Assembly (NCBI GenBank): GCA_043761585.1
Contig: JAYUNN010000035.1
Location: 32,706-96,705 of the forward strand
Length of the DNA stretch: 64,000 nucleotides
Source: a bacterium
GTDB taxonomy: Bacteria > Patescibacteriota > JACMRA01 > JAYUNN01
Reading direction: 5' to 3'
The notes below the pieces were generated by a model. That model was given only the letters and a program-made list of their open reading frames with translations, had not been told where the DNA came from and made no database searches. Position 1 is the stretch's first letter. Each line of letters starts with the position of its first letter. Below, one piece after another: positions 5,789-49,065 of the stretch. The position numbers were made by a program, and so were the translations under genes.

Positions 5789-6581
5789 TCAAACTAAACT
5801 TATATAGACGTGTAGTTGCGGGCATACGCTTTTATAAAAGTATTTAGGTAAAAACTAAAAATGGCGGCATATCTCGCGGCACAACTACAATCAAACTACG
5901 GGCAAAGTAAAAGCCTGGTTATTTGATAACTCGTTTGCCTCAGTTGAGTTTTTGGCATTGATTTATATTTGAATTTTCAACCAAGTCTCGTCTAAAATTA
6001 ACAATATACTTTGCCTTGGGTTTTGCTTACGTCAGGATCACCACCTCGGGTTTAGAGAGTACTAGCTATTTACATTCCTAGCGGCCCAATTTGCGGCCCT
6101 ATCCTCCAAAAATTTACTCAGCTTGGAAAGCTTATACTTCCACTGCTTTTTAGCAAACACAGATTTCGACACTTTTAAATTTGCAATGACTGTAGACATT
6201 AATTTTACCATTTTATATATTTTCTTCCCCTAGCATATAATTTTAAACAATTTGTGATTTATACATTAGAATATTTGGAATTAATCTTATTTGTATCATC
6301 AGTATTTTGGGTTTTTTTTGTGCTGGATGTATTGCTTTTTGCCTAAGTTATGACTAAAGTAGCAATTTAGCATTAAATCGATTTACACCTTTGCAAATAT
6401 CTTTTCAGGCAAAACGCTTCCTTTGTATTTACCGATGCAGATTTATCTTGAAAATTTATTAGCATAGAGACTTTATATGTGTTTCTAGAAAGTTTGAATT
6501 GGTGCATTTCTGTACACATCCTAGCGTTAAAACTAGCTAGATTTGGTTTAGAGTGAAATGAAATATTGGACTTTAGAAATA

Positions 6582-6705
6582 TTATTATGGAAGAGGGTAA
6601 ATACCCCGAAGCTTGCTTCGCACTCTTTTCATAACAAGCTTGGCGAACGAAGTGAGCTTTTCCGTTAGGAATACCTAGTAGCTTGCTGCGAGGAAGCTTA
6701 TTTTT
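6582..6705 (+). repeat. copy 1 of a ~124-bp structured repeat (partner at 47445..47569)
   Basis: About 85-90% identical by eye to 47445..47569, in the same orientation. It contains the hairpin gggtaaataccc and a 13-bp stem (6608-6620 with 6648-6660) that includes three G:U pairs when read on the plus strand. Confidence 0.8.
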
Positions 6706-7222
6706 GCATATTAGCACCAAACCAAAACACACCGACTGGACCTAAATGCCACAAAAGTCCGTGCAAAATAATCCAAGTGTTAGCACTGAAAGCTTCTCCC
6801 GTACCTGTAAAAGAGTCAGCGTAACCTCCGAAGAGCTGAACCGCAAACTTTGGAAAGAAAGTTGGCATGGGTTGCTCAGTAAAAACTCGATTGAAAACAT
6901 ACAAATACATACCGATTATCAAAAATCCCAGCAGCATTCGTTCAGGTCCGCCACCACCATCTTTGTCGATATTTATCGATAGATTGTCTACAAAAAATTG
7001 TTTAATTATTAGAGTTATCAAAAAACATGTCATGAATAAAACTATCCAAATTCCGTTACTATCAGTTATTTGCACGCCAGCTAAACCTAGCATCCTAATT
7101 CCAAATTCAGCAATCCAAATAATTATGCTATGTAGCGGCTGGAATACAAAAAATGAGATCAAAATGGCAACATACCAAGCTGATAAATTTTTTCGTCCAG
7201 CTTGAAAATGATCAAAAGGCAT
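6698..7222 (-). CDS. hypothetical integral membrane protein
   Basis: A 174-aa ORF with about 5 hydrophobic helices and no recognisable motif. Its stop codon lies inside the end of the 124-bp repeat. Confidence 0.5.
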   Translation of the reverse strand: MPFDHFQAGRKNLSAWYVAILISFFVFQPLHSIIIWIAEFGIRMLGLAGVQITDSNGIWIVLFMTCFLITLIIKQFFVDNLSINIDKDGGGGPERMLLGFLIIGMYLYVFNRVFTEQPMPTFFPKFAVQLFGGYADSFTGTGEAFSANTWIILHGLLWHLGPVGVFWFGANMQK

Positions 7223-43692: not shown

Positions 43693-44241
43693 ATGGGAAC
43701 TCTTACGCATTTTAAAAGATCTGCAACTACCCCGAAAGCTTCGCCTTCACCCCTAAATAGGGGTACGAGTACTGCCACTACAAATAGTACCCCTTTCAAG
43801 GGGTCAGAGCGGAGCTTTCGGGGTTGTGCCGAGCTTGCACCAGAGGTAATAGCTCTATTTCAAAGAACTCACTATAACAAAAGTCTTTTAAATAGGTCGA
43901 AGAACATGTCGCGAACCATGACAAAAGCTGAAAGTCGAATCTGGTTTGATTTGCTATCCAAAAAACAGTTACTCGGTTTAAAATTTATCAAGCAGAAAAT
44001 CGTTTTTAGTTATATATTAGACTTTTACTGCTCTGAGCTGTCTCTAGCCATAGAAATCGATGGAGAAAGCCACGATGCAAAGCTTGATTATGACAAAACT
44101 CGAGACAATTACATTAAGGCTTGTGGTATAAATGTTATAAGATTAAGTAATCATGATGTTTTTGGGAATTTAGAAGGGGTTAGGGAGTTTTTGATTGAGG
44201 AGGCGGGGAAGATTAAAAGTTTTAAAATTAATAAAACATAA
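43693..44241 (+). CDS. DUF559 (Vsr/PD-(D/E)xK-like) endonuclease-domain protein
   Basis: MTKAESRIWFDLLSKKQLLGLKFIKQKIVFSYILDFYCSELSLAIEIDGESHD...IRLSNHDV is the DUF559 core. The first ~45 codons are encoded by hairpin-rich DNA, so the true start is uncertain (next ATG at 43906). Confidence 0.7.
   Translation: MGTLTHFKRSATTPKASPSPLNRGTSTATTNSTPFKGSERSFRGCAELAPEVIALFQRTHYNKSLLNRSKNMSRTMTKAESRIWFDLLSKKQLLGLKFIKQKIVFSYILDFYCSELSLAIEIDGESHDAKLDYDKTRDNYIKACGINVIRLSNHDVFGNLEGVREFLIEEAGKIKSFKINKT
43729..43824 (+). other. ~95-nt three-way-junction-like structured element at the 5' end of the DUF559 ORF
   Basis: An outer 15-16 bp stem (43730-43744 with 43809-43823, one U:G on the plus strand) encloses hairpins acccctaaataggggt (43749-43764) and acccctttcaaggggt (43789-43804). 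Confidence 0.6.
43786..43830 (+). repeat. left arm of an inverted repeat bracketing the DUF559/HEPN-motif cassette
   Basis: agtacccctttcaaggggtca (43786-43806) is the exact reverse complement of 44748-44768. Roughly 15 of the next 24 inward positions also match. Confidence 0.75.
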
Positions 44242-44723: not shown

Positions 44724-44768
44724 GCTACAACCCCCAAGCCTTCGGCTTGACCCCTTGAAAGGGGTACT
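44724..44768 (-). repeat. right arm of the inverted repeat bracketing the cassette
   Basis: tgaccccttgaaaggggtact (44748-44768) is the reverse complement of 43786-43806. The hairpin aagccttcggctt is adjacent. Confidence 0.75.
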
Positions 44769-44823: not shown

Positions 44824-47400
44824 ATGTTTGTTAAAACCTCCACCGGTCTTGAATCAGTTGATTTCAATAAAATCTTGAAAAAAATTGCTAAATACAGTGC
44901 TGGCTTAAATCAGAAAGTTGATCCTGATTTAGTGGCTCAAAAAACCATTCAAAGTATGATTGACGGCATTTCTACGGCCGAACTAGACAATCTCTCTGCT
45001 GGAATCGCGGCTAATTTCACCAATGTTCATCCAGATTATTCGATTTTAGGAGCAAGACTACTGGTCAATCGCCTGCATAAACAGCTTGAAATTGGCAGTC
45101 GCACATTTACTCAAAATCTGGCTAGAATGTATAACCAAGTCACGCACGGTAAAAAATCTAGTCGAGTTTCTAAGGAGATGTACGAATTTTGTGTTAAGTA
45201 TGAAAATGAAATCGAGGCTATGATTGATTATGATTTGGATTATGATAACTATGATTATTCGGCGATCATGTCATATATTAAAAGTAGTTTGCGTAAAATT
45301 GAAGATGAAACTGCTGAATCTCCGAGCCAGATGTTTATGAGAGTTGCGATAGGTTTGCATATCCCAAAAAAACGTCCTGAGGCAGAGTTGGATAAAATCG
45401 AGGCCTACGCTGGGTTTAGACCTGAGAAATATCGGCTGATGGAGCTAACCGACGAGCAAAGACTGGCTGAAATATACCGCTATTATCGCCAACTAGCTGA
45501 GCGTAAAGTCTCACCTCAGAGTCCGATTATCGTACATGCTGGTAGCGACCTAAATCAAATGCCAAGCTGCTATTTACAGTACTGCGGTGACTCGCTTACG
45601 GGCGATGACTACTATACTGATGGCGTCGTAAAAGGCATCATGGGCTCACTGACACAGATGGCGGCTCAAGGTAAATCTGGCGGTGCTACAGGTGTAAATA
45701 TTTCAGATTTGCGCTCTAAAGGTAGCTATATCGCCAAAACTGGGGGTACCTCCAATGGTATCTTGCCATTTATGAAAATGTTTGATGCTTCTATTTCAGC
45801 TATCGACCAAGGTGGTCGGCGTGCTGGAGTCTGCACACTATATCTAGAACCATGGCACAAAGATGTTTTGGATTTTTTGGATGCGGGAGATCACTTTACA
45901 GTCGAAGAAAAACGCTGTAAACATATTTTTTACGCTCTTTACACCAACGATTTGTTTTTTAAACGACTGATCGAGGGTCAAAATAACGCCAAATGGACCA
46001 TTTTTGATCCGGCTGACGTGGTAGCTCGGCTCGGTCACTCACTCACTGATGTATACGGTCAGCAGTTTGAACAGGAATACGAACTACTCGAAAGTGAGGG
46101 GATCGGACAAACCATACCTTTAATGGAGATCTGGAATCGGGTTTGCAAGCTAATCCAAATCAGTGGTAATCCCTATCTGGTACATAAAGACAGTATAAAT
46201 AGCAAATCAAACCAGCAAAATATCGGGGTAGTCAAAGGTTCTAATGTGTGCTGTGAGGTGACACTGGTTTCAAATAGCGATGAAACTGGTGTATGTGTCC
46301 TATCTTCGATATCTCTACCTCGCTACATCGATCCTGTGACCTTAGAATTTGATTTTGATGCTCTGATCGAGACAGGAGGTCTAACCACTCGCAGCCTCAA
46401 TAATGTGCTTGATATTCAGCATTATCCTACGCCTGAAACTAGAAATTCGTGCATGTCTAGTCGAGCTATTGGTGTGGGAGCTCAAGGTTTGGCGGATGTA
46501 TTTGCTATTTTAAAAATGGATTTTGATAGTTCTGAAGCTAAAAGTTTGAATAAAAAAATCTACGAATGTATTTACTATGGCTGTATGCGTGAAAGTATGG
46601 AGCTAGCTAAACTGGAAGGCGCTTATAAATATTACCCAGGTTCGCCAGTTTCAAAGGGAGTTTTGCAATACGATATGTGGGGCCTCAAAGAAGCAGATTT
46701 ATTTTTAGGAGCCAAATGGGTTGAGCTAAAAGAAGAGATCGCTAGATATGGTGTCAGAAACAGTGAAGTGACCGCGCTCATGCCCACTGCTAGTAGCTCG
46801 ATCCGAATGGGCAACAATGAAATGCACGAACCATTTACTCGAAATATATACATTCGCCAGTATATCGGCGGTTCGGTTCGGGTAATCAATCGCTACTTGG
46901 TCAACGATCTAACTGAGCTAGGACTTTGGAATGAGCAGCTTTGTAACCAAATCATCTGGGCTGATGGTAGCGTCCAGGGGATAGCCGCGATTCCAGCTGA
47001 GATTCAGGCTCGATATCGCACCGCCTACGAGCTAGACTTTAAGACTATGATTGATTTGATGGCCGATCGCAGTCCGTTTGTATCACAAGCTGCGTCACTA
47101 AATCACTTTATTACTTTTGAGGCCAGTGGTCCGACCGCCTTTACGCAGCGGGTAATTTACGCCTGGAAAAAAGGCCTCAAGACCCTTTCATACTACATGC
47201 ACACCGAGACCGCCTCGACAGCTAAAAAAGAACTCGGTGGCTTATCTAGTCAAATCCAAAACCCAGCCAGTGAACCAGCTTTTGCATCGAATCTGCGAGT
47301 ATCACAAAAACTAAATATACCTGAGCACCTCGACCAAATCCAAACCTTAGAAGCAGGGGAGCTCGATGCCCTACAGGACTGTGAGAATTGTTCTAGTTAG
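44824..47400 (+). CDS. nrdA: class I ribonucleotide reductase large (R1/alpha) subunit with N-terminal ATP-cone
   Basis: Active-site GSNVCCEV, the radical-transfer SYYMHT, and a C-terminal CENC redox tail. Confidence 0.9.
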   Translation: MFVKTSTGLESVDFNKILKKIAKYSAGLNQKVDPDLVAQKTIQSMIDGISTAELDNLSAGIAANFTNVHPDYSILGARLLVNRLHKQLEIGSRTFTQNLARMYNQVTHGKKSSRVSKEMYEFCVKYENEIEAMIDYDLDYDNYDYSAIMSYIKSSLRKIEDETAESPSQMFMRVAIGLHIPKKRPEAELDKIEAYAGFRPEKYRLMELTDEQRLAEIYRYYRQLAERKVSPQSPIIVHAGSDLNQMPSCYLQYCGDSLTGDDYYTDGVVKGIMGSLTQMAAQGKSGGATGVNISDLRSKGSYIAKTGGTSNGILPFMKMFDASISAIDQGGRRAGVCTLYLEPWHKDVLDFLDAGDHFTVEEKRCKHIFYALYTNDLFFKRLIEGQNNAKWTIFDPADVVARLGHSLTDVYGQQFEQEYELLESEGIGQTIPLMEIWNRVCKLIQISGNPYLVHKDSINSKSNQQNIGVVKGSNVCCEVTLVSNSDETGVCVLSSISLPRYIDPVTLEFDFDALIETGGLTTRSLNNVLDIQHYPTPETRNSCMSSRAIGVGAQGLADVFAILKMDFDSSEAKSLNKKIYECIYYGCMRESMELAKLEGAYKYYPGSPVSKGVLQYDMWGLKEADLFLGAKWVELKEEIARYGVRNSEVTALMPTASSSIRMGNNEMHEPFTRNIYIRQYIGGSVRVINRYLVNDLTELGLWNEQLCNQIIWADGSVQGIAAIPAEIQARYRTAYELDFKTMIDLMADRSPFVSQAASLNHFITFEASGPTAFTQRVIYAWKKGLKTLSYYMHTETASTAKKELGGLSSQIQNPASEPAFASNLRVSQKLNIPEHLDQIQTLEAGELDALQDCENCSS

Positions 47401-47444: not shown

Positions 47445-47569
47445 TTATTATGGAAGAGGGTAAATACCCCGAAGCTTGCTTCTCACCCTTTTCATAACAA
47501 GCTTAGTAAACGAAGTGAGCTTTTCCATTAGGAATACCTCGTATTTTGGCTCTCGAGGAAGCTTATTTT
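47445..47569 (+). repeat. copy 2 of the ~124-bp structured repeat (partner at 6582..6705)
   Basis: Same orientation as copy 1 and about 85-90% identical by eye. It lies 45 nt after the nrdA stop and 36 nt before the AT-rich gene at 47605. Confidence 0.8.
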
Positions 47570-47604: not shown

Positions 47605-49065
47605 ATGTTTAGAAATATGATTGATTGCACAAATTGGATTGACGTCCTTAAAACCCTTAGTGATCCTAACCCAAGTTGCACAATCCAAAATCCATTAATT
47701 ATACCAATTGTTAGCACGCTCATACTAAGTATTATAGGAATCATTTTGCATTTTTTTAAGAAAAAACTACTCAACTCTTGGAGTATAATGAGCCAAAAAG
47801 TTATTCGGTTTTGGAAAAAGATTATTAAGAAAAAACTAACCTTAGTAATCTGTATCAGCCATGAAACAGAAGAAGAGAAAATGCGCATAAAAAACGATTT
47901 TATACAAACTATAAAAGATTTGATACAAGATCAAAAGCTTAGTCGAGAAATTGATTTGAAGATTGAAAATAATGATCAGCTGTTAGACAAGCTAAACAAT
48001 TATCACGGTAGTCAAGAAGAGATTAAGTATATAAATGAAGTTGTGTCAGGAGATTTTTTTATTTATGGATCAGTTAAAAAACGGGATGAATCTAAAAAAG
48101 ACACTTTCATACTAAATTTAAAACCTTTAGTAATGCCTGGAAAAATTTCAAAAATTTCAGATTACAATCAAAACCTCATCCAGGATTCGTTAAATGAAAT
48201 ATGGATATCAATATACAACATAAATAAACAATCTGAATTAACAGGCTTTGTTTTGAGTGCTGAATTAAGCTACATATCTTCAATATACATACTCGCAATA
48301 TCTACATTTATAAGTAAGAATTATGTAATGAGTGAGAAGTTATTCAAAAGCTTCAATTCGAATATTTTGGAAAAATACGTGAATTTCCCTAAATTGAGAG
48401 GCTTAAAATTAAAGACAGACATATTTTTGTCTGCCATCTACTTTAATTATGCCACTGAAGAACATAAAAAAAGAAGTAAAAAACAAGGTGACATAGATCA
48501 ACACATTGCACAATCACTAAAATACGACCATAAGAATTATAGCACATATCTTTTGAAAGCTAAGATAGAGTTTGAAAGCGGTAATGTAAAATCTTCTAAA
48601 AACACTATTAAAAAAGCAAGGAATCACAGTAACTCTGATTCCACCTGGATGTACAGCGAAGCTTTTCTTTTTTTATGGCAAAAAGAATACAATAAATCCC
48701 TTGTGCAATATAAAAAACTAAATAAAAAAAATTGTTTTGATGAGCAAAAAACAGTCGAAGATGTATGCAAATTTATAAAGAAGTTACACAAAAATAATCT
48801 TAAGCGAAATGACTTATTATTTATTTTAGGTTTTTTACACTATAATAAAACAAAAGATTTTGGCGCTGCTAAGTATCACTTCGATAATTTTATTAGCAAA
48901 ACTATAAATGATCCTCAGTTAAAAATTTTACGAGATTATGCTAAGGTGTGCCTTTCAGATATTGGAAATCAGAATTTAAAATTTAATTTAATATTTAGAC
49001 CAGTTGTTTTCTTAAAAGAAACATTTTTTAAATTAATTAATTTTTTTAAATCACAAATTTCATAG
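47605..49065 (+). CDS. hypothetical membrane-anchored protein with C-terminal TPR-like repeats, in an AT-rich islet
   Basis: A 486-aa ORF with a TM (PLIIPIVSTLILSIIGIILHFF). The C-terminal helical repeats look TPR-like (YLLKAKIEFESGNVKSSKNTIKKA, AFLFLWQKEYNKSLVQYKKL). Hand counts on sample lines give ~27-30% GC. Confidence 0.6.
   Translation: MFRNMIDCTNWIDVLKTLSDPNPSCTIQNPLIIPIVSTLILSIIGIILHFFKKKLLNSWSIMSQKVIRFWKKIIKKKLTLVICISHETEEEKMRIKNDFIQTIKDLIQDQKLSREIDLKIENNDQLLDKLNNYHGSQEEIKYINEVVSGDFFIYGSVKKRDESKKDTFILNLKPLVMPGKISKISDYNQNLIQDSLNEIWISIYNINKQSELTGFVLSAELSYISSIYILAISTFISKNYVMSEKLFKSFNSNILEKYVNFPKLRGLKLKTDIFLSAIYFNYATEEHKKRSKKQGDIDQHIAQSLKYDHKNYSTYLLKAKIEFESGNVKSSKNTIKKARNHSNSDSTWMYSEAFLFLWQKEYNKSLVQYKKLNKKNCFDEQKTVEDVCKFIKKLHKNNLKRNDLLFILGFLHYNKTKDFGAAKYHFDNFISKTINDPQLKILRDYAKVCLSDIGNQNLKFNLIFRPVVFLKETFFKLINFFKSQIS

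Follow-up and report, generated by a model that had tools for sequence, protein, structure and literature searches.

A short hairpin-bearing repeat of a reduced Patescibacteria-type genome is very probably a gene-less derivative of IS200-type insertion sequences

The DNA analysed here, referred to as the window, is a stretch of 64,000 nucleotides from a Patescibacteria-type bacterium whose genome assembly comprises 1.17 Mb at 36% GC in 39 contigs and is 88% complete. It contains two segments, 6582-6705 and 47445-47569, that the first-pass annotation had singled out as like-oriented look-alikes and interpreted either as a structured RNA or as ends of a mobile element. Which of these are they? 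The resemblance itself proved real, with about 90% identity in direct orientation. The block of identity extends over 6582-6703 in what we call copy A and over 47445-47568 in copy B, both on the plus strand (90-91% inside the block); outside the element identity falls to noise and the flanking sequences are unrelated. The sub-features that had been described, GGGTAAATACCC, GAAGCTTGCTTCG, CGAAGTGAGCTTT and a 3' hairpin that differs between the copies, are present in both (Table 1). The contexts had likewise been read correctly: copy A overlaps the stop codon of a minus-strand ORF (6698-7222, 174 aa), and copy B is situated 45 nt past the end of nrdA (44824-47400; Pfam Ribonuc_red_lgC, 529 bits). 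The interval of about 0.8 kb between a murE-like gene and copy A (5789-6581) lacks a convincing ORF in a genome that is otherwise compact, while an AT-rich stretch with an ORF of 486 aa without Pfam match (47605-49065) directly follows copy B.

Table 1. Positions of the repeat copies, their parts and a further hairpin within the window
Feature	Position	Strand	Remark
GGGTAAATACCC; in copy A the left-end GGG-TAAATA-CCC hairpin	6595-6606 (copy A), 47458-47469 (copy B)	+	85% paired among 13 copies
GAAGCTTGCTTCG	6608-6620 (copy A)	+	last G replaced by T in copy B
CGAAGTGAGCTTT; in copy A an internal, degenerate third palindromic module	6648-6660 (copy A), 47511-47523 (copy B)	+	10/14 positions match CGAAGCTTGCTTCG
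3' hairpin, inner part differing between copies	CCTAGTAGCTTGCTGCGAGG 6674-6693 (copy A), CCTCGTATTTTGGCTCTCGAGG 47537-47558 (copy B)	+	
Copy A, TTATT target motif 5' of left end	6582-6586	+	identity among 12 copies begins exactly there
Copy A, element proper ATGG...GCTTATT(T)	6587-6703	+	identity abruptly lost after ...CTTATTT in all copies
Copy A, left-end subterminal hairpin CGAAG-CTTG-CTTCG	6607-6620	+	91% paired in the genome; covaries across the family
Copy A, right-end guide AATA and subterminal hairpin CCTAGTAG-CTTG-CTGCGAGG	6670-6693	+	
Copy A, right-end tail AAGC, TTATT (putative transposon-encoded cleavage motif), T	6694-6703	+	
Copy B, TTATT target motif	47445-47449	+	
Copy B, element proper	47450-47568	+	
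Long hairpin 5' of DUF559 cassette	43726-43827		partner arm 44727-44768; not counted as family member

The repeat is not confined to the two copies in the window, as had been assumed. BLAST against the whole genome yielded about a dozen full-length copies; 12 span at least 88 of the 122 nt, and six, copy A included, are 96-100% identical to copy A. The youngest six comprise copy A and the copies at C38:25352, C3:21048, C4:284, C11:39971 and C23:113596. A profile search of the genome with nhmmer brought the number of matches to 35 in all, about 20 of which are fragments, many holding the left end only or the right end only. Three short forms of 52 nt are found at C15:74694-74745, C15:20783-20836 and C38:6153-6204. 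Copy B represents a subfamily whose right-end hairpin has another inner part, CCTCG-TATTTTGGCTCT-CGAGG; this variant recurs at C23:48022, C23:84515 and C23:88576. The right-end hairpin of copy A contains one mismatch relative to the consensus CCTCG. Without exception the copies lie between genes, in both orientations relative to their neighbours. On the level of contigs, 22 of 25 copies share the majority orientation of their contig (P ~0.007 by simulation); such a bias would be expected if single-strand transposition is coupled to the replication fork (PMC5027513, PMC6006769). GC skew was too weak to give the direction of replication. With 122 nt the repeat is too short for a transposase gene, and its sole reading frame comprises 15 codons from ATG to TAA. 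This mini-ORF (ATGGAAGAG...TAA) was rejected as a gene candidate: it is not conserved, its ATG being lost in three of 13 copies (C13, C23:48022 and C11:33875). Outside this genome the 122-nt form was absent from 60 of 60 relatives, a metagenome scan for the repeat core returned five chance matches and nothing else, an exact-protein look-up for a neighbouring gene found no record, and no paper on the hairpin sequence turned up in the literature.

The first-pass annotation had also proposed kinship with a structured segment at 43729-43824, which we consider marginal. The resemblance consists of AA(A/C)TACCCCG-AAGCTT, 15 of 17 nt with one gap, a score that was reached by 3 of 500 shuffles and by 9 of 487 random pieces of the window. 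The long hairpin at this place occurs nowhere else in the genome, and BLAST does not connect it with the repeat. Together with its partner arm it brackets a DUF559 gene (43906-44241; Pfam DUF559, 87 bits) and an ORF of 157 aa; this hairpin/arm pair is unique in the genome and sits between nrdB and nrdA. It looks like a separate inserted cassette, and any relation to the repeat would be a distant one. None of the repeat copies flanks a DUF559 gene.

Alignment of the copies together with their flanks revealed knife-sharp borders, TTATT/ATGGAAGAGGG...GCGAGGAAGCTTATT/T (slashes marking the borders). Terminal inverted repeats are absent, the 5' end TTATTATGGAAGAGGG and the reverse-complemented 3' end AAATAAGCTTCCTCGC showing no match by direct reading of 30 nt each. 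Nor is a variable duplicated flank seen; both borders carry the constant TTATT. The motif directly precedes every full-length and every 52-nt copy examined, diverged and fragmentary copies having a variant form only. In copy A it conforms to the family motif T-N-A-X-T, and the flanks preceding it are unrelated among 12 copies. The 3'-terminal TTATT is followed by a T in 14 of 14 copies examined, which the simple model does not predict and which leaves the 3' boundary of copy A ambiguous by 1 nt (6702 or 6703). On the left, TTATT is located 17 nt from CCCC and 20 nt from the foot of the 5-bp hairpin; on the right, it ends 9-10 nt 3' of the hairpin.

Inside these borders, a left module (AATA-CCCCGAAG-CTTG-CTTCG) and a right module (AATA-CCTCGTAG-CTTG-CTGCGAGG) are arranged in direct orientation, and a degenerate third module, CGAAGTGAGCTTT, resides mid-element. 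The AATA beside the main left hairpin, termed guide here, lies within the loop and 3' side of the GGG-TAAATA-CCC hairpin; a GGG..N6-7..CCC arrangement is likewise located 5' of the left-end hairpin in TnpA-bearing insertion sequences of other phyla. The module is palindromic and any copy of it can thus pair with any other. This accounts for the 13-bp long stem reported by the first-pass annotation and for the three G:U pairs in it (27-83, 33-75 and 34-74), which are real as sequence facts, because the 3' strand of that stem is the degenerate third copy of the palindromic CGAAGCTTGCTTCG module.

The genome encodes a single IS200-type TnpA, located outside the window (C19:64743-65189, 148 aa, intact) in the genome's sole IS200-type insertion sequence (C19:64620-65240). 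The protein scores 100 bits with Pfam Y1_Tnp (PF01797) and 108 bits with the NCBIfam equivalog transpos_IS200 (NF033573; cut-off 55), and in an alignment with ISDra2 TnpA (2xm3) the HUH motif (DHVH) and the tyrosine helix (IQKY) are conserved. TnpB was not detected above cut-off in the host genome. CTTG-loop hairpins stand on either side of the tnpA gene, AATTCCCCGTAGCTTGCTGCGGGG upstream of it and TAAGATACCTCGTAGCTCTGGGGCGAGGAGGATTTATTT downstream. The right end of this resident element, TTAAGATACCTCGTAGCTCTGGGGCGAGGAGGATTTATTT, matches the right end of the repeat at 34 of 41 positions. Of the two options in the first-pass annotation, that of mobile-element ends is the right one. The left ends differ: the resident element features AATT and an 8-bp hairpin, the repeat GGGTAAATA and a 5-bp hairpin, and the left end of the repeat is closer to Verrucomicrobia-type IS copies than to the resident IS. 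The true parent may be absent from the 88%-complete assembly, and it is no more than plausible that the resident TnpA mobilises the repeat by cross-mobilisation. A diverged copy of the repeat (C19:62067-62158) is found about 2.5 kb upstream of the resident element.

The same hairpin is widespread. When we scanned one genome per species for the 20-mer ATACCYCGWAGCTTGCTKCG, it was present in at least 119 contigs. The labels of those listed include Verrucomicrobiota, Desulfobacterota, Planctomycetota, Bacillota, Spirochaetota, Nitrospirota, Chloroflexota and Patescibacteria, along with Thermoplasmata and Methanosarcina MAGs; among the matches listed, more than ten bacterial phyla and two archaeal groups occur by label, where the archaeal labels, which come from MAGs, could be binning errors. 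Elsewhere the usual form is ...GGGTNNATTCCCCGAAGCTTGCTTCG, about 20 nt and then GATACCCCGTAGCTTGCTGCGGGGTAGTTCATT. In several loci the modules frame an ORF, and tblastn with the resident TnpA detected homologues in eight of the 119 stretches listed. Five other Patescibacteria, retrieved by protein and not by DNA pattern, contain TnpA homologues of 45-55% identity flanked by the same hairpin with varying inner stems (TAG/CTG, CTG/CAG, CGG/CCG, TCG/CGA and CCG/CGG). Exact ends are provided by three identical copies of a related insertion sequence (TnpA 52% identical) that reside, with the same hairpin, in one unrelated 4.5-Mb contig: identity among them sets in at TTCAC(T) and stops at ...GGGGTAGTTTATT. 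As the left TTCAC and the right TTTATT differ in these three full-length copies, the two motifs are not a target duplication there, which argues against a duplication in the repeat.

Variation among these relatives allowed us to ask which pairings are maintained. Across 18 ends, 88% of the cells of the 8-bp hairpin are paired; double-change cells number 14 as compared with 3.9 +/- 1.5 in shuffles, none of 500 shuffles reaching 14, and the covariation score is 0.36 as compared with 0.13 in shuffles. Furthermore, the nucleotide that immediately precedes the hairpin foot and the penultimate one of the terminal T-N-A-X-T vary together. With A before the foot, the tail reads ..A-T-T (65 vs 4), and with G it reads ..A-C in 11 of 13 cases after hand inspection, both counts being taken irrespective of kinship. 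This correlation between sequences suggests that the guide 5' of the hairpin foot pairs with the cleavage motif, as in IS608.

Two further sets of loci carry the hairpin in other surroundings. Genome G002, from the same order, contains a different repeat (L032:1495-1530 and L033:800-880) with an identical right-end hairpin, ATACCTCGTAGCTTGCTGCGAGG, followed by unrelated sequence; two inverted copies are present, and the TnpA homologue of this genome is broken by a TAA. In loci L066, L103, L121, L124 and L136 from various phyla, the hairpin forms part of a longer composite repeat, ...TTATTCTCCTTCGCCGAATACCCCGTAGCTTGCTGCGGGGATGAAGGCGAGGAGAACCCTCC..., which suggests nested or chimeric variants of the kind of element described in the following.

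PATEs have been defined as elements without inverted terminal repeats and without target duplications that are too short for a transposase and possess near-terminal palindromes related to IS605-type transposons (Dyall-Smith et al. 2011, PMC3119063). We consider it highly probable that the repeat is a PATE, i.e. a gene-less, non-autonomous derivative of the IS200/IS605 family, specifically of the tnpA-only IS200 group. It is non-coding by its length, lacks terminal inverted repeats and has IS200/IS605-like palindromes near both termini. In HqIRS46, a PATE of Haloquadratum walsbyi, the near-terminal palindromes form a 22-bp direct repeat, and deletion of the core results in terminal-only forms of 52 bp (PMC3119063); the palindromes of our repeat likewise constitute a direct repeat of about 22 nt, and its core-deleted forms measure 52 nt. 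In Geobacillus stearothermophilus, PATE-like elements depend on one TnpA that mobilises them in trans (Meers et al. 2023, PMC10055086). In contrast to the PATEs described before, the repeat resides in an ultra-small Patescibacteria-type bacterium and not in a haloarchaeon, points to a parent of the tnpA-only IS200 group instead of the IS1341/TnpB type, is devoid of an omega-RNA-like part and has its own CTTG-loop hairpin sequence and TTATT motif.

The paradigms for single-strand "peel and paste" transposition are IS608 from Helicobacter pylori and ISDra2 from Deinococcus radiodurans (PMC3201880, PMC5027513). In IS608, each hairpin foot is preceded on its 5' side by four guide bases, which pair with the cleavage site, and the top strand alone is cut. 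The left site lies outside the element, 19 nt before its hairpin, and the right one lies within the element, 10 nt past its hairpin (PMC3201880). The repeat resembles these elements in its subterminal hairpins on one strand, in a motif outside the left and inside the right end at comparable distances (17-20 and 9-10 nt as compared with about 19 and about 10 nt), in a short guide that precedes the hairpin foot and changes in concert with the motif, and in the availability of a Y1 HUH TnpA with conserved HUH motif and tyrosine. It differs from them in being gene-less, in the pentanucleotide T-N-A-X-T (TTATT) that takes the place of TTAC/TCAA or TTGAT, and in the extra GGG...CCC pairing at its left end; the clade to which it belongs is known from sequence alone.

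Following this precedent, the repeat would be made up of the two ends, left and right, with a short non-coding core between them. A Y1 HUH TnpA acting in trans would bind both subterminal CTTG-loop hairpins, which would form on the top (plus) strand of single-stranded DNA, for example at a replication fork. The AATA guide just 5' of each hairpin would find its pairing partner in TTATT, which stands once immediately before the left end and once as the terminus of the right end, and this pairing would set the points of cleavage. The top strand would then exit as a single-stranded circle and reinsert on the 3' side of a further TTATT, and the target would not be duplicated. The short forms of 52 nt would be terminal-only remnants that arose by recombination between the two directly repeated hairpin modules. 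That the repeat still moves, and the exact positions at which it would be cleaved, are inferences.

A PATE that inserts at TTATT also offers an explanation for the overlap of copy A with a stop codon. The target reads AATAA on the opposite strand and thus contains TAA. Upon virtual excision, copy A and the copies at C3:21048 and C38:6153 each prove to be inserted exactly at the stop codon of a convergent gene, and in all three the terminal TTATT supplies the TAA (6698-6703 in the window, C3:21164-21169 and the C38:6153 region). The tail of copy A on the minus strand represents the last sense codon and the TAA of ORF 6698-7222. Insertion at the TTATT target of a convergent gene end thus accounts for the overlap, and as the right terminus of the element is itself TTATT, virtual excision leaves the ending of this ORF unchanged (...MQK and stop). 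Disruption of genes by the copies was considered as well and rejected, as virtual excision did not restore a long ORF across any junction. It is conceivable that the clade of IS200 elements with CTTG hairpins is unusually conserved and that its gene-less derivatives were co-opted in this reduced genome, a notion that we regard as unlikely. If so, the TTATT-ended right arm would regenerate stop codons and may serve adjacent genes as a 3'-end or antisense RNA module, and the strand-specific T.G pairs would serve an RNA function besides transposition.

We judge it very unlikely that the repeat is a multi-copy gene for a structured small RNA, transcribed from the plus strand and folding into a hairpin, a 13-bp stem and a 3' hairpin. 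The strand asymmetry that had been put forward for this reading exists: G.U (T.G) pairs are formed on the plus strand only, which holds for the long stem as well as for the conserved right-end hairpin, where the T.G wobble is found in 83 of 120 pattern matches and UG in 8 of 18 ends. The long stem also keeps 88% pairing over 13 copies, and several consistent changes affect one side of it. Compensatory changes, however, occur in none of its 13 pairs, relatives elsewhere have only about 20 nt between the modules and hence no long stem, and the comparative signal sits in the two local CTTG-loop hairpins. Folding energies of the two copies are indistinguishable from those of shuffled sequences, with MFE z-scores of -1.0 and -1.6 for the plus strand and -1.3 and -0.8 for the minus strand, which thus folds about equally well. 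The long stem exists as sequence complementarity, but the proposed fold is backed neither by energy nor by covariation. Rfam offered no family match to the element, even at E up to 10: over the window tRNAs alone reach the gathering score, and at this relaxed limit the sole match on 6480-6800 was SIB_RNA (12 bits, E 9.3), HgcC not being matched. Scans of the copies for promoters and terminators did not reveal a shared signal above chance. The occurrence of copies in both orientations relative to genes also speaks against an RNA gene, and mobile DNA typically shows such truncated, fragmentary and core-deleted versions. While the wobble pairs are indeed restricted to the top strand, the step from there to a plus-strand RNA is unsupported, and recognition of single-stranded DNA by an IS200-type transposase is the best-supported explanation for the asymmetry.

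Even less likely, in our estimation, is a REP- or REPIN-like repeat served by a domesticated, RAYT-type Y1 transposase and maintained for a host function such as stabilisation of mRNA 3' ends or termination. REP, BIME and REPIN sequences with their RAYT (TnpA-REP) enzymes share with our system short hairpin repeats, a Y1 HUH enzyme and a conserved motif next to the hairpin (PMC2817692, PMC8266576), and the presence of a single Y1 transposase gene alongside many short hairpin repeats would fit, as would the many copies just past gene 3' ends and the three that recreate the stop codon of a convergent gene. REPINs, however, are inverted doublets, and RAYTs are single-copy domesticated genes with flanking REPs, whereas the modules studied here are direct, the left and right ends have distinct polarity, and the enzyme scores as an IS200 equivalog encoded within an insertion sequence, framed by a left and a right IS end and not by inverted REPs. 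The copy number is low (about 35), and a terminator-like signal does not exceed chance.

Least likely of all is a classical MITE that depends on a DDE transposase and duplicates a 5-bp TTATT target, since TTATT at both borders of every copy and the short, non-coding, multi-copy and intergenic character, sometimes at gene ends, that the repeat has in common with Correia/NEMIS, RUP and ERIC elements are outweighed by the lack of the terminal inverted repeats (ends read directly) that characterise MITEs, along with target duplications, by hairpin modules that are direct and not inverted, by the unequal TTCAC (left) and TTTATT (right) of the three identical full-length IS copies, and by ends that match an IS200-type IS.

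The repeat is an already-known sort of selfish DNA and not a new structured RNA, and the current understanding of the transposition mechanism is unchanged. For genome annotation it follows that these repeats, and the same hairpin module in many phyla, should be labelled as IS200-derived PATEs and not be mistaken for riboswitches, small RNAs or terminators. The family provides a clean natural set of guide/cleavage covariation for its IS200 clade. As for the organism itself, a reduced genome of 1.17 Mb with a single tnpA gene yet harbours a recently amplified family of non-autonomous elements, six copies of which are still 96-100% identical.
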